NCBI GenBank assembly: GCA_041389925.1
Contig: JAWKQX010000006.1
Coordinates: 151,837-215,836 of the forward strand
DNA from: Kofleriaceae bacterium
Lineage (GTDB): Bacteria > Myxococcota_A > Polyangia > Haliangiales > Haliangiaceae
DNA: 64,000 nt
Direction of reading: 5' to 3'
Shown here piece by piece: positions 30,569 to 52,851 of this stretch. The translations under genes were made by a program, and so were the position numbers. Positions within the stretch are counted from its first letter, which is position 1. Each line of letters opens with the position of its first letter. Under the pieces are notes generated by a model. It saw nothing but the letters and a program-made list of their open reading frames with translations, was not told the DNA's origin and did not search any database.

Positions 30569-31408
30569 ATGGATTCGATGCTTGGCATGCTCGGGGGTTC
30601 CGCTGGCGCCGCGACGGCACTGATCCCGGCGTTTGCGTTGCTTGGCTACTTCTACATTCTGCTGGATCGTCGACGGGACGACAGCATCAGCAAGGGAGAC
30701 GGCCAGGTCGGCGCCAAGCTGGTGCTGTGCGGCTTCATCCTGTTCGGCCTGATGACGGCCGCGGGCGGGGCCATCCAGCTCCTCGCGTTCATCCTCGGCG
30801 GCTTCAAGAACACCGGGGAGCTCAAGGCCGCGTTCGCCGGCATCGTCGGCGGCGGCGTGATCGGCGGCGCGGCGTTCGCGCTCGGGCTGCGCCGGACCAA
30901 CAACGACAAGCACGCGCAGGTCGCGCGCTTCGCCGCCGGCGTCGTCAGCCTGGGAGCGGGCCTCGCGGCCTCCGCCTCGTTTGTCGCGCTGCTCAACGCG
31001 CTGTTCCTCGGCGGCGGCTGGGACGGCATCCGCGGCACGCTCTCGCCGCTGGTCGTCTACGGCGCCCTCGCGTTCGTGTCGCTATCGATGCACGGCAAGA
31101 TGTCGGGCATCGTCTCCGCGATGCCGGCGCCGCAGCCGGCGGCCGGGTACGGCCAGGCAGGCTACGGCCAGCAGGGCTACGGTCAGCAGGCGGGCTACGG
31201 CCAGCAGGGCTATGGCCAGCAGGGTCAGGCGCAGGCGGGCTACGGTCAGCAGTCGCAACCGCAGGCGGGCTACGGCCAGCAGCCGCAGGGCTACGGCCAG
31301 GCGCAGCCCCAGGCCGGGTACGGCCAGCAGGGCTACCCGCAGGGCGGCCAAGGTGGCGGCTACCCGGGCGGCGGTCAGGGCGGCCAGGGCGGCTACGGCC
31401 AGCGCTGA
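30569..31408 (+). CDS. polytopic membrane protein with C-terminal (GYGQQ)n low-complexity tail
   Basis: AAGAGGTAGG Shine-Dalgarno before ATG 30569. 5-6 hydrophobic helices. The C-terminal about 85 aa are [11 protein letters not shown] repeats (about 15-bp DNA repeat, 31141-31405). Confidence 0.7.
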
Positions 31409-37091: not shown

Positions 37092-40000
37092 ATGACGCGC
37101 GACGGCGAGCCCATGGGCGCACAGTCCGAGGAGGCCCGCGCGGAGACGGGGACGGAGGCGGCGGCGGAGACGGTGACGGTGACGGTAGCGGAGACGGAGA
37201 CGGTCGCGGAGACGGAGACGGTCGCGGAGACGGAGACGGTGACCGTGACGGTAGCGGGGGCGGAGACGGAGGCGGGGACGGAGACGGTAGCGGAGACGGA
37301 GACGGTAGCGGAGACGGAGACGGTAGCGGAGACGGAGACGGAGGCGGGGACGGAGACGGTAGCGGAGACGGAGACGGTGACCGTGACGGTAGCGGGGACG
37401 GAAGCGGTAGCGGGGACGGATGCGGTCGCGGATGCGGGAGCGGAGACGGTCGCGGTCGCGGAGGCGGGGACGGAGGCGGTCGCGGAGACGGTCGCGGTCG
37501 CGGAGGCGGGGACGGTCGCGGAGACGGTCGCGGTCGCGGAGACGGTCACGGTCGCGGACACGGGGACGGTCGCGGAGGCGGTCGCGGTCGCGGAGACGGT
37601 CACGGTCGCGGACACGGAGACGGTCGCGGCCACGGTGGACCCACGGGTGCCCTCGGCGCACCGGGCGGTCACCGTCGCCGCGCGAGGTCTGGGCGATCGC
37701 GTCGGCTCCACGGCGCGCGGGCCGATCGCGCACCTCGACACCGTCAACGACAGCGCGCCACGCGCGAACGCCGCGGAGGCTCGCCCCGACTCCGCGCCGC
37801 CGGAGTCGCGCTACGCCGGACGTCGCGAGCTCGGCCGCGGCGGCATGGGGCGCGTGCTGGAGGCCGTGGATCGCCACCTCGGGCGTGTCGTCGCCGTCAA
37901 GGAGTCGTTCGCCACCGACGAAGATGGACGACAGCGCTTCGCCCGAGAGGTCGCGATCACGTCGCGGCTGGAGCACCCGGCCATCGTGCCGCTCTACGAC
38001 GCCGGCACCACCGCCCAGGGCCGGCCGTACTACGTCATGCGCAAGCTCACCGGGCGCGGCCTCGATCAAGTGATGACCGCGGCGACCACCCTCGACGAGC
38101 GCATCGCGCTCTTGCCCGCGCTCCTGACCGTCTGCGACGCGGTCGCCCACGCCCACGCGCGCCGCGTCGTGCACCGCGACATCAAGCCGGGCAACATCTT
38201 GATCGGCGATCACGGCGAGACCATGGTGATCGACTGGGGCCTCGCGAAGGTCATCGGCGAACCCGCCGACGGGCCGGCCGACGCCGCTTCCAAGCCCCAC
38301 GTCCTGCCGCCCGACGCGCCCACCGCGCCGCCGCGCGGCGAGCACCCCCCGCTGCCGGTCGACGAGCTCAAGACCGTCGTCGGCTCGGTGTTCGGCACCC
38401 CGGGCTTCATGTCCCCCGAGCAAGCGCGCGGGGAGCAGCTCGACCTGCGCGGCGACGTCTACGCCCTCGGCGCGACGCTGTATCACCTGCTGGCGGGGCG
38501 GCCGCCGCACGTGGGCAGCTCCGCGACCGAGGTGATCGATCGCGTCCGCGTCGAGCCGCCGCCGCCCTTGCCGGAGGTCTGCCCGGGCGCGCCGGCGGAG
38601 CTCGTCGCCATCGTCGACAAGGCCATGGCGTTCGAGATCTCGGACCGCTACGCCGACGCCTCCGCGCTCGCGGGGGATCTGCGCCGGTTCCTCGCCGGGC
38701 AGCTCGTCGCCGCGCACCGCTACACGCTGTGGCAGCGGCTCCGCCGCGCCGCGCGTCGGCACCGCGCCGCGTTCCTCGTCGCGGGCGGCTCGCTGCTGGT
38801 GGTCGCGACGCTGGCGACCCTCAGCGTCGTCCGCATCATCAGCGAGCGCGATCACGCCGACGCGGCGCGCCGGATCGCGCAGCTCGAGCAGCGGCGCGCG
38901 GAGGAGGCCCGTGACGAGGCGGCCCTCCGCGCGGAGGAGCTGATCGTCGCGCAGGCGCACGGCCTCATCGAGCCGAACCCGACCGCGGCGCTCGCGCTGC
39001 TCAAGCGCCTCGCGCCGGGCTCGTCGGCGTGGCCCAAGGCGCGGATGATCGCGATGGCGGCGCAGGCGGAGGGCATCACCCGCGCCGTGCCGGCGAGCCG
39101 CACGCGCGTGCCCTCGATCTTCGCCATGAACCCGCGCAGCGATACCCTGCTCATCGGCGAGGATCAAGGGCGCATCCGGCTGCTCGACCTGGAGTCGCTC
39201 CGCATCCGCGAGCTGCTCGATGTCGGCGGGCGCGCGTTCGGCTGCTGGGTCAACGGCGGCGCCGCCGTGCTGCTCGCGAACGAGGCGGTCGGCATGGTGC
39301 TCCACGACGTCGCGTCCAAGCAGACGCGCACGGTGCCCATCTCGGCGCCGGTGAGTGCGCTGGAGTGCCAGGGCGGCAAGGGCGCGGCCTACCTCGACAA
39401 GGCCGGCGGCCTCTGGGTGGTGGACTCGGTGCTCGCGCAGGTGCGTCGGGTCGAGGCCGGCCTCGCGGTCGAGCACCTCGCGGTGACCCCGGACGGCGAG
39501 TGGCTGATCGTCGGCGGGCGAGGCGAGGCCGCGATCCTCGATCGCGACGGGGGCGTGCACCGACGCTTCTCCGGGGAGACCCTCCGGGTCCTCACGTCCG
39601 CGGGCGGGCGCGTCGGCATCTTCTTCCGCGATCGCGCGCTGGAGCTCGATCCGAAGAGCGACGCCGCGCCCACGGAGATCCCCTTGCCGAAGTTCCCGCT
39701 GGCGATCTTCTTCGTCGGCGAGAAGCTGCGCGTGCTCAACGGGCAGAACCGCCTGTGGTTCTCCGACGGCACGCTGGATGTGGAGCTGCCCACCACCCCG
39801 CAGGGGAGCGCGCCGCTCGGCGATCGCACCGCCGCGTTCGGCCTCCACGACGGCTCCGTGTGGCTCACCGGCTGGTGGGGCGCGCGCATGCTGCGCACAC
39901 CGGCGACCAGCGCGCTGGTCCGGCTCGCGGGCCGCGCGGGCTCGCCGTGGCTCGCCGCATGGACGACCGAGGGCGTGCTGGTCTGGAACCTCAGCGGCGC

Positions 40001-46434: not shown

Positions 46435-48012
<1,578 letters not shown>

Positions 48013-48104
48013 GGCCGCGAGTGTACCCGCAACGGGCGCGGGTTCGTCCCAGGTGTCAGCGAGGGGCCTCCGTCCAACGTGTCAGCGATGTCTTGATCCG
48101 TTCC

Positions 48105-48340
48105 CCGCCGCCGCCACCGTCCCCGTCGCGGCCACGGCCACCGCCACCGTCACGGTCACCGTCCCCGTCACGGTCGCCGTCCCCGTCACGGCCACCGCCA
48201 CCGTCACGGCCACCGTCACGGTCACGGCCACCGCCACCGCCACCGTCACGGTCACCGTCCCCGTCACGGCCACCGCCCCCGTCACGGCCACCGCCACCGT
48301 CACGGCACGCCTCCGTCACCGTCACCGTCGCCGCCTCCGT
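48105..48340. repeat. GTSACS hexanucleotide repeat tract abutting the IS left end
   Basis: Read directly (ccgtcacggtcaccgtccccgtcacggccacc...). Continues on the other side of the IS (49869-49920). Confidence 0.8.
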
Positions 48341-49868
48341 CTATCGATCCCGCACAAGTTTCCGGATCAATTCAGTCCCTTAGCCTTCTCCGTCGAAAAA
48401 ACGTCAGATGGTCGTGATCCCCTCGGTCGATGAAAGAGCGGCTGGACGAGGATGCCATCGGTCGAATGCAGGACGACTTGAGCCGGTCCGACCTTGGGGA
48501 TCCCCGGCGGGTCTCTCGTGCACAACAGATCGTCGCTCGCCTAGCGGCGTCCCCGGGGTCTTCGCTTCCCGAAGCCCTGGTCACCGATGCGGAACTGGAG
48601 GGGGCCTATCGACTCTTCAACAACGACCGCGTGACCTTTGAGCAGCTCTTCGATGCTCATGCGGGGGGCACCGTCGAACGAGCGCGAGGTCGCAAGCTGG
48701 TCCTCGCGATCCACGACACCACGGCGTGCTCGTTCCGACATGCGGATCCTCGAGAGATCGGGTACCTCCACACGGGGAAGCCAGGGTTTCTGTTGCACAT
48801 GACGATGCTCGTCGATACGGAGCAGTGGCGGCGGCCTTTGGGGCTCACCCATGCAGAGGTCCTCACGCGCGACAAACCGAGCAGTCGCAAATCGCGCATG
48901 TCGGGGGGAGAGACGGCGAAGCTCGCCGACCGGGAATATCTTCGCTGGCAACGTGGCATTTCGGTCTCCGAGGCCCGGTTGCAGCAAGCGGGCGCGTCGA
49001 TCATCCACGTGGCAGACCGCGAGAGCGATTCGTACGAGTTGATGGCGACGTGCGTGTCCCTCGGGCAGCGGTTCATCCTTCGAGCCAAGACGCATCGCAC
49101 CGTGGACCTGGACGGCCAGCGTGTTGGAATTCGGGATTTCGTCGTCGAGCAAGGGCGTGTCCGATTGGAGCGCGAGGTCCCGTTGTCACGGCGCCTCGGT
49201 ACCTCCATGCCCAATCGACGGCGCGACCATCCGCCACGCGAGAGCCGCGTCGCTAAGCTTTGCTTCTCGACGACGCAGGTGACGTTGCGTCGCCCCAACA
49301 TCGTTCCCGCGCGCAACGCGCCCCCCACGCTTGAGGTCAACGCGCTGCACGTGTTTGAGCCCGAGCCGCCGCCTGGCCAAGAGGCCGTCGACTGGTTGCT
49401 GTACACGACGGAGCCCCTCGGTACACGGCAGGAGATCGAAGACGTCGTCGACTACTACCGATGCCGTTGGCAGATCGAAGAACTCAACAAGGCGCTCAAG
49501 ACGGGCTGCGTGGTGCAGGAACGCCAGCTCGAGTCATTCGACGCGCTCACCACGATGCTGGCGCTCTCGCTCCCCATTGCCGTCGAGTTGCTTGCGCTTC
49601 GTACCCTCGCTCGCTCCGACGAGACGGCCCCCGCCACGGAGGTGCTCTCAGAGGACGAGCTTGCCGCTCTTCGCCACATGAGCCATCGGCCCCTCCCGGA
49701 CCGCCCCACCGTGCAGGACGCTCTCTGGTGCATCGCCGGGATCGGTGGACACATCAAGAATAATGGCTCGCCGGGTTGGCAGGTCCTCCAACGCGGCATG
49801 GAAAAGTTCATGTCTTTCGCGGCCGGATGGTGCGCGGCAAAGGCCGCCGACTTGTGATCAATCGATAG
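48341..49868 (+). mobile_element. IS4-family insertion sequence (about 1.53 kb) with imperfect terminal inverted repeats and a 10-bp target-site duplication
   Basis: Left end ctatcgatcccgcacaag. Right end cttgtgatcaatcgatag (the inverted counterpart). Flanked by the direct repeat ccgcctccgt at 48331-48340 and 49869-49878. A single transposase ORF lies inside. Confidence 0.8.
48430..49857 (+). CDS. IS4-family DDE transposase (475 aa)
   Basis: YYRCRWQIEELNKALK = Y-2-R-3-E-6-K signature of IS4-family transposases. DDE-type catalytic-core composition. ATG 48430. Confidence 0.85.
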   Translation: MKERLDEDAIGRMQDDLSRSDLGDPRRVSRAQQIVARLAASPGSSLPEALVTDAELEGAYRLFNNDRVTFEQLFDAHAGGTVERARGRKLVLAIHDTTACSFRHADPREIGYLHTGKPGFLLHMTMLVDTEQWRRPLGLTHAEVLTRDKPSSRKSRMSGGETAKLADREYLRWQRGISVSEARLQQAGASIIHVADRESDSYELMATCVSLGQRFILRAKTHRTVDLDGQRVGIRDFVVEQGRVRLEREVPLSRRLGTSMPNRRRDHPPRESRVAKLCFSTTQVTLRRPNIVPARNAPPTLEVNALHVFEPEPPPGQEAVDWLLYTTEPLGTRQEIEDVVDYYRCRWQIEELNKALKTGCVVQERQLESFDALTTMLALSLPIAVELLALRTLARSDETAPATEVLSEDELAALRHMSHRPLPDRPTVQDALWCIAGIGGHIKNNGSPGWQVLQRGMEKFMSFAAGWCAAKAADL

Positions 49869-49920
49869 CCGCCTCCGTCACCGTCTCCGCCCGTCTCCGC
49901 CACCGTCTCCGTCTCCGTCA
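49869..49920. repeat. short GTSACS hexanucleotide tract between the IS right end and the four-helix-bundle gene A
   Basis: ccgcctccgtcaccgtctccgcccgtctccgccaccgtctccgtctccgtcac read directly. Confidence 0.7.
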
Positions 49921-49948
49921 CAAAATGGCGCCCTTGCCGCCTCGAACG

Positions 49949-50272
49949 TCACCGAGGGGCTGCGAGCCGGTAGAGCATGCCGCCGAGCCGGTCCGCGATG
50001 GCATGGGGCGACTCGGTGCCGTCGAGCCAGCCCTTGGCCGTCGCGAGCGCCAGCGCGCTGCGCACCTCGCGGAGGCTGCCGTACGCGATGCGGAACAGCT
50101 GCACGCGGTCACCGCCGAAGCGCCCGCCGGCCTCAGCGAGGTTCAGCGCGACGCTATCCGCGGCGCGATCGAGCTGACGAGCAAGGTCTCGGTCGCGCTG
50201 GCGAACCGCCGCGAGCGGGCCGCGAAGACTACGAACCAGGTCGAGCGAGAGGTCATAGGCGAGAAAGGGCAT
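49949..50272 (-). CDS. four-helix-bundle protein (TIGR02436 / 23S rRNA intervening-sequence protein / Avd-like), copy A, 107 aa
   Basis: MPFLAYDLSLDLVRSLRG...LARQLDRAADSVALNLAEAGGRF...QLFRIAYGSLREVRSALALA. Conserved xxAxSIxxNIAEG and LxEL motifs of the family. GGAGA Shine-Dalgarno 9 nt upstream. Confidence 0.8.
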   Translation of the reverse strand: MPFLAYDLSLDLVRSLRGPLAAVRQRDRDLARQLDRAADSVALNLAEAGGRFGGDRVQLFRIAYGSLREVRSALALATAKGWLDGTESPHAIADRLGGMLYRLAAPR

Positions 50273-50421
50273 CGGTCATCTCCAGGGGTGGTTTCTCCCC
50301 CCAAGCGGAACGAACCGTGACGCGCGCTGAAAAAACCAACGCTCGCGCTCTCGTCCACACTCTCTCGCGCGCGGCGCGGTTCTTTCCGCGTCCGGGAGAA
50401 CCACCCCTGGAGATGGCCGAT
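50270..50421. promoter_or_regulatory. about 150-bp imperfect palindrome duplicating the RBS/start context of copy A in inverted orientation (CATCGGTCATCTCCAGGGGTGGTTTCTCCCC ... GGGAGAACCACCCCTGGAGATGGCCGATG)
   Basis: Arms read directly. Left arm includes ATG+SD of 49949..50272(-). Right arm gives an identical SD+ATG (50419) for the + strand TV-repeat ORF. Inner arms also partly palindromic. Confidence 0.6.
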
Positions 50422-50949
50422 GCCCGGCTCGACCTGAGCTCGCTCCTGACCGCCGTGGCCGTGACCGTGACCGTGGCCGTGACCGTGACCGTGGCCGTCG
50501 CCGAGACCGCGACCGTGGCCGTCGCCGAGACCGTGGCCGTCGCCGAGACCGCGACCGTGGCCGTCGCCGGGACCGCGACCGAGACCGTCGCCGGGACCGC
50601 GACCGAGACCGTCGCCGAGACCGCGACCGTGGCCGTCGCCGAGACCGCGACCGTGGCCGTCTCCGAGACCGCTGCCGCCACCGTCTCCGTCTCCGTCACC
50701 GTCACCGTCACCGTCTCCGTCTCCGTCACCGTCACCGTCACCGTCTCCGCCACCGCCACCGCCACCGTCTCCGTCTCCGTCTCCGCCACCGTCCCCGTCT
50801 CCGCCACCGCCACCGCCACCGCCACCGCCACCGTCTCCGTCTCCGTCTCCGTCTCCGCCACCGCCGCCGCCGCCGTCACCGCCTCCGGCTCCGTCACCGA
50901 GGCCGTTTCCGCTGCCGAGGCCGTTTCCGCTGCCGAGGCCCGCGGCTGA
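50419..50949 (+). CDS. putative repeat protein ORF-X (MADARLDLSSLL + about 150 aa of TV/AV/ET dipeptide repeats); may be a non-functional by-product of the palindrome
   Basis: Same SD (ctGGAGAtggccgATG) as the four-helix-bundle gene. The first 15 aa resemble the four-helix-bundle N-terminus. The body is encoded entirely by the hexanucleotide repeat, in a high-GC3 frame. Confidence 0.3.
   Translation, partial: DARLDLSSLLTAVAVTVTVAVTVTVAVAETATVAVAETVAVAETATVAVAGTATETVAGTATETVAETATVAVAETATVAVSETAAATVSVSVTVTVTVSVSVTVTVTVSATATATVSVSVSATVPVSATATATATATVSVSVSVSATAAAAVTASGSVTEAVSAAEAVSAAEARG
50452..50945. repeat. largest GTSACS hexanucleotide tract (about 75 units) followed by two 18-bp repeats (gccgaggccgtttccgct)
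   Basis: Read directly. Every frame on both strands is open through the tract. Confidence 0.85.
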
Positions 50950-51001
50950 CACCGGGCTGCTTCGGTCCTCGTCGGCAGGGGCTCCTTGGGGCGGCGAAGT
51001 C

Positions 51002-51194
51002 AGGCCGTCGTCCGTCGTCGTCTCGCCCCGCGCCCCGACGCGCACCGGCCCGCGCCGAGCGCCGGGGGCGCGGTGCAGGAGCGGGTGGCCGCCGCATGAA
51101 CAGGGTTGGAGGAGGCGCGCGCGTCGAGGGGGCGCTCGTCACGGGCCGTGCGCGTTGGGGGCGCTGGGGGCGAGAGACGACGACGGACGACGGC
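51002..51194. mobile_element. MITE-like element: 28-bp inverted repeats (aggccgtcgtccgtcgtcgtctcgcccc / ggggcgagagacgacgacggacgacggcct) flanking about 135 bp, just upstream of four-helix-bundle gene B
   Basis: Arms read directly at 51002-51029 and 51166-51194. No convincing ORF between them. Confidence 0.4.
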
Positions 51195-51228
51195 CTGCTC
51201 TTAGGCCCCTCACCAAAGGAGTTCCCTA

Positions 51229-51552
51229 ATGCCTTTCGATGTTCTCGAAACCTCCCTCAGCGTCATGGAGCGGCTCACGCCAGTCGAAGCGAAGCTCCGC
51301 CAGCGCCGAAAGTCCCTTGCCGATCAGGTCGGCCGAGCCGCGGAGAGCGTGTCGCTCAACATCAGCGAAGCGCGCGAGCGCGCCGGCCTCGATCGCGCGG
51401 ATCTCTTCCGACGCGCGGCCGGCTCCGCGAGCGAGCTCACGACGGCGCTGCGAATCGCGCAGCTCCGTGGCTACATCACGGCAGCAGACTTCGCGGCAGT
51501 CGACGCCATGCTGGATCGTGTCCGCGCGATGCTCTGGCGGCTCACTCACTGA
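51229..51552 (+). CDS. four-helix-bundle protein (TIGR02436 / 23S-IVS / Avd-like), copy B, 107 aa
   Basis: MPFDVLETSLSVMERL...LADQVGRAAESVSLNISEARERA...DLFRRAAGSASELTTALRIAQ. AAGGAG Shine-Dalgarno 9 nt upstream. Paralog of copy A in opposite orientation. Confidence 0.8.
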   Translation: MPFDVLETSLSVMERLTPVEAKLRQRRKSLADQVGRAAESVSLNISEARERAGLDRADLFRRAAGSASELTTALRIAQLRGYITAADFAAVDAMLDRVRAMLWRLTH

Positions 51553-51587
51553 CGGCACGCCAAGGGCGCCTCGGCTGCCGCGGCGGT

Positions 51588-51607
51588 GACTTGCGACCAA
51601 TCGATAG
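51588..51607 (+). mobile_element. solo IS4-family right-end remnant (gacttgcgaccaatcgatag) followed by a hexanucleotide tract
   Basis: Matches the IS right end gacttgtgatcaatcgatag at 18 of 20 positions, in the same orientation relative to the adjoining repeat tract. Confidence 0.5.
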
Positions 51608-51672
51608 CCGTCACGGCCACCGTCACGGTCACGGTCACGGCCACCGTCCCCGTCCCCGTCACGTCCACCGTC
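51608..51672. repeat. GTSACS hexanucleotide tract read in-frame into the SDR gene's upstream ORF
   Basis: ccgtcacggccaccgtcacggtcacggtcacggccaccgtccccgtccccgtcacgtccaccgtc. Confidence 0.75.
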
Positions 51673-51690
51673 TCGAGTATGCTCCGCTCC

Positions 51691-52395
51691 ATGAGAACCC
51701 TCTCCAAGCGACATGTCGTGGTCACCGGCGCCACCGGCGCGCTGGGCAGCGCCGTGGTGGCCAGGCTGCTCGACCTCGGCGCGGAGTGCCACTTGCCGAT
51801 GCGCGAGCCGGCGGTGCCGGAGCACCTGCCCTGGCGCGGTCACGCCCAGGTCCACGCCACGCCGAGCGTCTCGCTCGAGGACGAGGCCGCGGTGACCGCG
51901 TACTACGCCGGCCTGCCCGAGCTGTGGGGCTCGGCGCAGCTCGTCGGCGGCTTCGCGATGAAGCCGCTGCTCGACACCTCGCTCGCGGAGCTGCACGCGC
52001 AGTGGAGCCTCAACGTCGCCACCTGCTTCCTCTGCTGCCGCGAGGCGGTGCGCGCCATGCGCCGCAGCGGCGGGGCCCAGGGCGGCCGCCTGATCAACGT
52101 CACGGCCCGCGCCGCGACGAGCGCCGCGCCCGGCATGCTCGCGTACACCGCGGCCAAGGCGGCGGTGGCGTCGCTCACCCAGACCCTGGCGGCGGAGCTC
52201 GCGCAGGAGCAGATCCTCATCAACGCGATCTCCCCGTCGCTGATCGACAGCGCCGCCAACCGCGCGGCCATGCCCGACGCCGACTTCGACAAGTGGCCCA
52301 AGCCCACCGAGCTCGCCGACGCCATCGCCTTCCTGCTCTCGCCCGACAACGCGCTGACCTCCGGCGCGATCGTTCCGGTGTACGGCCGCGCCTAG
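51691..52395 (+). CDS. SDR-family NAD(P)-dependent oxidoreductase; start uncertain (ATG 51679/51691; the ORF is open back to GTG 51586 through the repeat)
   Basis: VVVTGATGALGSAVVARL (TGxxxGxG). YTAAKAAV (YxxxK). ...LINAISPSLIDS. Confidence 0.8.
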   Translation: MRTLSKRHVVVTGATGALGSAVVARLLDLGAECHLPMREPAVPEHLPWRGHAQVHATPSVSLEDEAAVTAYYAGLPELWGSAQLVGGFAMKPLLDTSLAELHAQWSLNVATCFLCCREAVRAMRRSGGAQGGRLINVTARAATSAAPGMLAYTAAKAAVASLTQTLAAELAQEQILINAISPSLIDSAANRAAMPDADFDKWPKPTELADAIAFLLSPDNALTSGAIVPVYGRA

Positions 52396-52404
52396 CAGGG
52401 CTGG

Positions 52405-52851
52405 TCAGCGCACCAGCCGCGCCAGCGCCGAGCGCAGCGGCTCCTCGATCGCGCGCGGCCGCTGCGTCTGGCGATCGACGAACACGTGGGTGAAGTCGCC
52501 GTACGCGCGCGCGCTCGGGTCACCGGCGAGGAAGATCGCCACCTCGTAGCGCACGCTCGAGCTGCCCAGGTGCGCGACGCGCAGCCCGCCCTCCAGCGCA
52601 TCTGGATAGGCGACCGAGGCGGCGAACGTGCACGAGCTCTGCACCACGAAGCCCAGGCTCTCGCTGCGCTGTAGATCGAGCCCGCCCTCCTCGATCAGGT
52701 AGCGGTTGATCAGGCTGTCGAACAGCGCGTAGTAGACGACGTTGTTGAGGTGACCGTAGAGGTCGTTGTCCATCCAGCGCGTCTGCAAGGCGCAGACATG
52801 CGGGTACTCGGAGCGCTGCGGCGGTGCGGGGCGGGGCGGCATCGCGTCCAT
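52405..52851 (-). CDS. hotdog-fold acyl-CoA thioesterase (4HBT/YbgC-like)
   Basis: …RWMDNDLYGHLNNVVYYALFDSLINRYL… matches the 4HBT family motif (D-x-D-x-x-G-H-V-N-N). Confidence 0.75.
   Translation of the reverse strand: MDAMPPRPAPPQRSEYPHVCALQTRWMDNDLYGHLNNVVYYALFDSLINRYLIEEGGLDLQRSESLGFVVQSSCTFAASVAYPDALEGGLRVAHLGSSSVRYEVAIFLAGDPSARAYGDFTHVFVDRQTQRPRAIEEPLRSALARLVR

Follow-up and report, generated by a model that had tools for sequence, protein, structure and literature searches.

An IS50/Tn5-like insertion sequence in a hexanucleotide repeat tract of a Kofleriaceae bacterium and the association of its clade with such tracts

A stretch of 64,000 nt from a Kofleriaceae (Myxococcota) metagenome-assembled genome (MAG), positions 151,837 to 215,836 of contig JAWKQX010000006.1 (assembly GCA_041389925.1; hereafter the window, to which all coordinates refer), carries an insertion sequence (IS) within a tract of hexanucleotide repeats. 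We read positions 48341-49868 as an intact DNA transposon of the IS4 family, autonomous and most similar to the IS50/Tn5 subgroup, that inserted into the tract with a 10-bp target-site duplication, and give this reading a probability of about 0.9. Insertion into such tracts is a property of the whole clade and not an accident of the window copy, and the preference is well supported. The coordinates of the first-pass annotation, in which the element and its duplication had been noticed, were all correct when re-checked against the window sequence.

The element and its transposase

The features of the element and of the tract that it interrupts are as follows.

48341-49868, + strand: complete insertion sequence, IS4 family, IS50/Tn5-like, 1,528 bp (from the inverted repeats and the limits of identity among copies)
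48341-48359, + strand: left inverted repeat (IRL), CTATCGATCCCGCACAAGT, 19 bp, resembling an outside end (pattern search)
49850-49868, - strand: right inverted repeat (IRR), CTATCGATTGATCACAAGT, 19 bp, resembling an inside end and including the transposase stop codon (pattern search)
48430-49857, + strand: transposase gene, 475 aa, the end coordinate including the stop codon (open reading frame and domain matches)
48331-48340, + strand: left copy of the 10-bp target-site duplication, CCGCCTCCGT
49869-49878, + strand: right copy of the 10-bp target-site duplication, CCGCCTCCGT
48111-48340, no strand: left part of the interrupted tract, with CCGTCA/CGGCCA/CCGCCA-type units (Tandem Repeats Finder, period 6, 38.8 copies)
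49869-49920, no strand: right part of the interrupted tract, its register continuous with the left part minus one 10-mer

The borders of the element were set by the inverted repeats and confirmed by the points where identity stops among copies with differing flanks. Across these copies the first C and the last G of the element were invariant, which fixes the ends as CT...AG and the length of the duplication as 10 bp rather than 11 or 12. The two 19-bp ends were identical at 15/19 positions, which agrees with the imperfect terminal inverted repeats described in the first-pass annotation. A search of the window with the end pattern returned IRL, IRR and one further site, with 0.03 expected by chance. 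The interior is occupied by one open reading frame of 475 aa, and the GC content was ∼0.64 in the element vs ∼0.73-0.75 in the flanking genes.

The transposase matched the Pfam domains PF14706 (Tnp_DNA_bind) and PF01609 (DDE_Tnp_1) and the NCBIfam model NF033590 'IS4 family transposase' with 281.7 bits (cut-off 160). The best solved structure was that of the Tn5 transposase, aligned over residues 18-471 (E = 1.4e-38). The catalytic DDE residues are D96, D196 and E350, which align with D97, D188 and E326 of Tn5, and the Y(2)R(3)E(6)K (YREK) signature is formed by Y343, R346, E350 and K357 within YYRCRWQIEELNKALK. All six residues were invariant in a 20-sequence alignment of relatives. The earlier assignment to the IS4 family is thereby upheld by PF01609, NF033590, the DDE residues and the YREK motif, and so is the description of the transposase as intact and carrying this signature. 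The YREK motif separates IS4 from IS701, ISH3 and IS1634 (PMC2266710).

For the IS50 subgroup, De Palmenaer et al. (2008; PMC2266710) list in their Table 1 a size of 1,350-1,550 bp, the YREK motif and direct repeats of 8-9 bp, and the end consensus of the subgroup is CW------Y---CA-A--W- (PMC2266710). Both inverted repeats of the element fit all seven specified positions of this consensus, and its size of 1,528 bp falls inside the range. The direct repeats are 10 bp and not 8-9 bp in the element and its close clade, the published figure being a descriptive range and not a criterion for clustering the subgroup. A target duplication of about one helical turn (7-13 bp) together with terminal repeats, as is usual for the IS4 family, is present. 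IS50R was among the best named matches at ∼30% identity, and named plasmid relatives reached no higher. The subgroup assignment is based on the best structure and named matches, the Tnp_DNA_bind domain, the size and the end consensus. The element is a new, unnamed member of the IS4 family, specifically an IS50/Tn5-like one. Its family-level identity is not new, as the genome's own annotation by the Prokaryotic Genome Annotation Pipeline (PGAP) already labels the gene IS4 family transposase.

Target-site duplication and empty site

The 10-mer CCGCCTCCGT is present as an exact copy directly outside both element ends. Two random 10-mers from the tracts of the window are identical with a probability of 0.0046. 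Removal of the IS and one 10-mer copy left an unbroken hexamer register, which was broken when both copies were kept.

The empty site was found on a metagenome contig (L108; ENA ERZ28655229), which has a single CCGCCTCCGT and no IS. It carries a copy of the four-helix-bundle gene that adjoins the tract in the window (gene A, see below), 318/324 nt identical to the window gene. Past the stop codon of gene A, 99 consecutive nt of this contig match the window minus the IS and exactly one 10-mer. These comprise the 29-nt spacer, the right tract part with its irregularities, which is identical over its 52 nt, and 18 nt of the left flank. When L108 was compared with models containing two 10-mer copies or none, identity was lost at the junction. 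The empty site was reached through cluster members of gene A. Look-ups by neighbour protein found exact gene A and protein P0124 not on record, and the contig found via the FGGY-family sugar kinase on the other side of the IS ended 87 nt upstream of that gene, at the tract edge.

Among the relatives, 10-bp duplications were perfect at three loci (L032, L036 and L039, 10/10), matched at 9/10 positions in L025 and L037 and at 8/10 in L020. Of these loci, L039 lies at the very edge of a short tract and L037 outside any tract. The direct repeat on both flanks, which the first-pass annotation had taken for a target-site duplication, is thus borne out by L108 and by the restored register. Its further claim, that the flanks are the two halves of one tract from which the pre-insertion sequence can be reconstructed, holds by register continuity and L108, and the tract without the IS that it had proposed to look for in related sequence is the one seen on L108. 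The tract therefore predates the insertion in the window.

Insertion into hexanucleotide tracts across the clade

Homologues of the transposase at E < 1e-30 numbered >1,000, nearly all of them on contigs of 1.5-2 kb. The sample that was analyzed consisted of 80 metagenome loci, plus others from genomes and exact look-ups. The ends of the relatives were set by the conserved end motif; a generic inverted-repeat finder had given blurred ends. Tract context spanned 60-100% identity, and relatives at 60-78% identity lay in hexanucleotide tracts of quite different units, such as CTCGAC (L018), GTTGAC-like (L020), AAACGT (L014) and TAGGCG (L015), as well as GTGGAC and GGCGAC. The median lag-6 self-identity of the 42-nt flanks was 0.57 in the close clade (44 flanks) and 0.28 in relatives at 35-47% identity (98 flanks), the latter being equal to control lags (close clade vs 35-47% relatives, Mann-Whitney p = 8e-17). 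In the window, tracts make up ∼2% of the sequence, and all flanks of exact-transposase copies were tract-like.

When 48 distinct flanks were read outward from either end, the consensus was a repeated A-C-G-T-N-N, with CG at positions 2-3 in 41/48 flanks, at positions 8-9 in 35/48 and at positions 14-15 in 37/48. From this flank consensus it follows that the 10-bp target is ACGT-NN-ACGT-like and symmetric, as are the targets of other IS4-family elements, and the spacing of its half-sites equals the tract period. The window target CCGCCTCCGT is a local variant of it. Relatives down to ∼60% identity had the 10-bp duplication and an ACGT-NN-ACGT-like target, and nearly all of their sites were period-6 tracts. 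Those at 35-47% identity had mostly 9-bp duplications (seven cases at 9/9, and a few of 10 bp) and mostly no tracts. Searches of the literature turned up neither an account of hexanucleotide tracts in Kofleriaceae or myxobacteria nor one of an IS4-family element that targets microsatellites.

Copy number and recent movement

The exact protein is MEZ4363287.1 ('MAG: IS4 family transposase [Kofleriaceae bacterium]'), encoded on a contig of 543,886 bp. The first-pass annotation had suggested counting IS copies genome-wide. NCBI lists a single accession for the exact transposase, which suggests one copy of the element in the source MAG, a count taken from protein accessions only (a contig scan gave five loci, the source genome not being among them).

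The exact protein was also present on 14 short metagenome contigs, ten of which were compared. Nine of the ten differed from the window by the same three nucleotide changes and had between them at least seven different right flanks, and the remaining contig was identical to the window element and had the same right flank. In related metagenomes a near-identical allele thus occupies other tract sites, at least seven of them, and the presence of identical copies at so many sites points to recent transposition.

Tandem duplications and inverted flanks

The following feature was found in the right part of the tract.

49881-49900, no strand: two perfect copies of the 10-mer CCGTCTCCGC in tandem, 12 bp from the IS

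In the five tracts, ∼1.3 kb in all, this pair was the only perfect tandem duplication off the hexamer period (k = 7-16, multiples of 6 excluded). The pair breaks the hexamer register, and its length and N-CG-N4-CG-N form match those of the target duplication. Since it is present in L108, it is older than the insertion. It may be the footprint of an older excision, or a 2-bp deletion in a 12-bp-periodic tract that looks alike.

In the flanks of the close clade (24 kb), k = 10 yielded seven tandem duplications and the adjacent lengths, k = 9 and 11, yielded none. For relatives at 35-47% identity (34 kb of flank) there were seven at k = 9, and k = 10 was absent. These events are few and not all independent. 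A duplicated 10-mer directly adjoins IRR in two relatives (L025 and L029). At a third locus (L075, transposase 39% identical), period-9 tandem repeats of the ACGCCAAGG type adjoin both ends and recur 114 nt away. The latter locus parallels the link of period-6 tracts with the 10-bp clade, many relatives at ∼39% identity making 9-bp duplications. Tandem repeats of duplication length beside element ends may be excision footprints: blunt re-joining after a Tn5-type excision would leave a 10-bp tandem duplication, which would imply repeated visits to one site.

At four loci (L026, L027, L030 and L035) the left flank recurred on the right as its reverse complement; the inverted arms ran for 51-135 nt to the end of the contig and differed by one to three mismatches. 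Inverted flanks that lack a direct duplication were also seen in L001 and L005 and in the distant L052, L053, L057, L063 and L075, and over the whole set the inverted stretches ranged from tens of nt to 135 nt, with a few mismatches. The elements of L030 and L035 come from different samples and are 90% identical, and the four-helix-bundle gene flank that the two loci have in common lies left of the IS in one and right of it in the other. An assembler artefact, insertion into a palindrome and one site occupied in both orientations were weighed as readings of the inverted flanks. Occupation of the same site in both orientations within a population, with subsequent joining by the assembler, fits best, and would be consistent with repeated excision and re-insertion.

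The genes around the tracts

The neighbourhood of the element contains the following features.

49949-50272, - strand: four-helix-bundle gene A, of the 23S rRNA intervening sequence (IVS) protein family (PF05635, TIGR02436)
46435-48012, - strand: FGGY-family sugar kinase gene (PF00370, PF02782)
51229-51552, + strand: four-helix-bundle gene B, 107 aa
51589-51607, - strand: solo IRR-like end, CTATCGATTGGTCGCAAGT, 17/19 to IRR, adjoining the tract 51608-51672

The tract had been placed immediately 3' of gene A on the - strand, and this was found to be so, with a gap of 29 nt between the stop codon of gene A and the tract end. The stop codon is 81 bp from the IS, which the 3' end of the gene faces. 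The start codon of the FGGY kinase gene is 328 bp from the IS, the IS being upstream of it, and the orientation of the IS is opposite to that of both genes. An 18-nt direct repeat, CGTCC(C/A)A(G/C)GTGTCAGCGA, occurs in two copies (48045-48062 and 48071-48088, 26 nt apart) between the FGGY start codon and the tract, where an operator or promoter could lie.

Genes A and B are divergent across a 490-bp tract, and both have tracts on their 5' and 3' sides. Other intergenic tracts of the GTSACS type, up to ∼500 bp long, lie at 37140-37640, 50452-50940 and 51608-51672. The tracts 37140-37640 and 50452-50940 have no IS end, and the former also has no four-helix-bundle gene alongside. The large tract that separates genes A and B closes with a perfect 18-bp tandem repeat, CCGAGGCCGTTTCCGCTG, in 2.4 copies (50897-50940).

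The solo end CTATCGATTGGTCGCAAGT, also written CTATCGATTGGTCACAAGT, lies 36 nt past the stop codon of gene B with its outer edge against the tract 51608-51672. BLAST of 49869-52400 against the IS returned only ∼20 nt of similarity at the end, which rules out that the 3' flank of gene B is a longer IS remnant. In a test for a transposable element of the miniature inverted-repeat type (MITE) or a composite element, no other site in the window matched at 14/19 positions or more as a partner for the solo end, and CTATCGAT at 31082 is a coincidence inside coding sequence. On one contig (L012) the gene B cassette follows the window almost base for base as far as the solo end's outer edge, after which the tract is entirely different, a pattern expected either of a mobile-element boundary or of a hypervariable tract. 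On another (L004), the IS is separated by a 52-nt tract from a similar solo end, TTATCGATTGGTCACAAGT, that faces it.

Exact gene A and exact gene B have three accessions each in the MAG, and at least seven adjacent A-like/B-like pairs were counted from accession numbers, so the A/B pair appears to be multicopy in the source MAG. L105 and L106 carry the same IS, inserted in the tract that lies 5' of an A-like gene, and four-helix-bundle genes or their remnants adjoin the IS in L020, L030 and L035.

Both genes are preceded by a predicted hairpin that is long and very stable. The one before gene A (50270-50425, - strand) had a minimum free energy of -102.4 kcal/mol (z = -9.4), with the start codon in the base of the stem; before gene B (∼50977-51226, + strand), the 291 nt upstream folded at -198.2 kcal/mol (z = -7.1). 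Rfam gave no match in 47500-52500, which includes both hairpins. At E <= 1e-10 the homologues of gene B fell into >500 clusters; most of the listed ones were ∼80% identical and on very short contigs, and one large cluster was named from a Gemmatimonadaceae MAG. Such conservation across phyla is unusually high for a protein of 107 aa.

Proposed mechanism and alternative explanations

By homology to Tn5, a transposase dimer would synapse both ends and the element would be excised as a blunt-ended fragment through hairpin intermediates. Both 3' ends would then be joined to the target strands, with cuts staggered by 10 bp, and gap repair would produce the duplication. Target capture would favour two CG(T) motifs 6 bp apart, and because motifs at this spacing are favoured, a period-6 tract would amount to an array of overlapping target sites.

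Several points weigh against an intact transposon that inserted into the tract with a 10-bp duplication. When both 10-mers lie in the N-CG-N4-CG-N register, the probability that they are identical is 0.049, and for this reason the caveat of the first-pass annotation, that in a periodic repeat the match could be expected by chance, is fair for the 10-mer taken alone: the match is suggestive, not decisive. The match to L108 reaches only ∼18-22 nt beyond the junction before the tract diverges, and L108 may represent a paralogous copy of the multicopy A/B module and not the orthologous locus. None of the five exact-transposase contigs with both flanks (0/5) showed a matching duplication, and in 2/5 the flanks were on opposite strands. 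The missing duplications probably reflect chimeric assembly of a multicopy repeat or IS-mediated rearrangement between copies; recombination between IS copies and adjacent deletions are listed causes of absent duplications (PMC11708052). Moreover, selection against insertions elsewhere could account for part of the tract bias, hairpin chemistry and target recognition are drawn from related systems, and present-day transposition activity is what we infer from homology and copy patterns.

On these grounds it might be argued that the 10-mers match by chance in a periodic sequence, that there is no true duplication and that the element arrived by recombination or is a relic. The periodic tract, the in-register probability and the five contigs without matching flanks would speak for it, but L108 fits the one-copy model only and largely refutes it. 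In addition, the removal of 10 bp restores the hexamer register, and relatives have perfect or 9/10 duplications at tract edges or outside tracts. The chance match that had been named as a possible refutation is answered by L108 and by these 10/10 and 9/10 duplications at weakly periodic sites, and we attach next to no probability to it. That the tract preference is an effect of survivorship or sampling and not of target choice by the transposase is improbable. Tracts are intergenic and probably neutral landing sites, and the data all come from assemblies, not from de novo insertion events. However, tracts are a small part of the window and a minority of its intergenic DNA, yet every exact-transposase flank is tract-like, and copies outside tracts should assemble more easily, not less. 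The symmetric ACGT-NN-ACGT consensus lies in the first 10 nt outward, as target capture predicts, and distant relatives in similar soil metagenomes have no such context.

The IS lineage might also make or enlarge its tracts through excision and re-joining. Excision of the Tn5 type leaves blunt flanks with one copy of the duplication on each; blunt re-joining of these would give a 10-bp tandem duplication, and in a speculative route terminal ACGT microhomology would add 6 bp, one hexamer unit. Consistent with this, tandem duplications at k = 10 and k = 9 track the duplication length of each group, and duplications adjoin the ends in L025, L029 and L075 and lie 12 bp from the window IS in the case of the CCGTCTCCGC pair. 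On the other hand, a periodic hexamer tract that loses 2 bp looks as if 10 bp had been duplicated, replication slippage is a simpler cause of hexamer expansion, tracts of ∼500 bp exist without a nearby IS end, the window tract was continuous before the insertion and the tandem duplications are few and partly dependent, so that we consider tract-making by the IS rather unlikely. A wider version, for which we see some chance but a low one, is that a Tn5-like clade in Kofleriaceae-like soil bacteria is specialised for hexanucleotide tracts and helps to build its own landing pads through repeated ACGT-NN-ACGT insertion, excision and end-joining; the tracts also flank an apparently multicopy four-helix-bundle module that ends in a solo IS end. 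Very unlikely, finally, is a single larger transposon of 3.27 kb (48341-51607) bounded by IRL and the solo end, with genes A and B as cargo. IRL (48341, + strand) and the solo end (51607, - strand) are indeed inverted and bracket both genes, the A/B pair is apparently multicopy in the MAG and L012 ceases to match the window precisely where the solo end has its outer edge. Against this, a perfect duplication and an empty site belong to the 1,528-bp IS by itself, and the 10-mers outside 48341 and 51607 match at 6/10 positions only. Gene A or B also occurs alone, without the IS, in L107, L108 and L012, and the transposase has one accession in the MAG vs three each for exact A and B.

Significance and comparison with known systems

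As a single IS the element adds little, and the behaviour of its clade is the part worth keeping. Here a DDE transposon has a 10-bp symmetric target that matches the period of a tandem repeat, such that a hexanucleotide tract would offer a whole array of insertion sites. Insertion directed by microsatellites would then have a clear natural example in bacteria, which would also account for the breaks in short-read assemblies at these elements and their neighbourhoods. With its defined period and the shift from 9 to 10 bp, the clade would also be a tractable system in which to study how members of the Tn5 family capture their targets. Should the tandem duplications indeed be excision footprints, transposon activity would be tied to the origin of bacterial simple-sequence tracts.

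Among known elements, IS10/Tn10 has a symmetric consensus within its duplicated target, NGCTNAGCN, which creates insertion hot spots. The logic of a symmetric target is the same as in the ACGT-NN-ACGT of the present element, but IS10/Tn10 belongs to another IS4 subgroup, has a 9-bp duplication and uses a single-site consensus that is not reiterated by a tandem repeat. IS1397 and ISKpn1, which target repetitive extragenic palindromes (REPs) or the bacterial interspersed mosaic elements (BIMEs) that contain them, and REP-targeting members of the IS110 family insert almost only in short repeated intergenic sequence. They resemble the present clade in their near-exclusive insertion into one class of short intergenic repeat; their transposases belong to unrelated families (IS3 and IS110), and their targets are palindromic units and not hexanucleotide tandem tracts. 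IS231A has a marked preference for sequence context, and its favoured target is the ends of transposon Tn4430. Like the present element, it is a member of the IS4 family, and its duplication is 10-12 bp (PMC2266710). It differs in its subgroup, in its CAT ends and in that its target is the Tn4430 ends and not a microsatellite.

The closest resemblance is to IS50/Tn5. The two transposases can be aligned from one end to the other, with the N-terminal end-binding domain included, and the DDE residues and the YREK motif are conserved, the identity to IS50R being only ∼30%. In IS50R, as read from plasmid NZ_CP129515.1, the outside end likewise lies upstream of the gene and the inside end just past the annotated gene end. 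IRL matched the Tn5 outside end at 11/19 positions, including CACAAGT at positions 13-19, and IRR matched the Tn5 inside end at 13/19, including TTGATCA. Tn5 has a weak target consensus, unlike the strongly periodic target of the present element. The IS50 subgroup has duplications of 8-9 bp (PMC2266710), against 10 bp here, and it is this 10-bp duplication, together with the strong clade-wide association with tracts, that sets the element and its close relatives apart from the IS50-like elements described.

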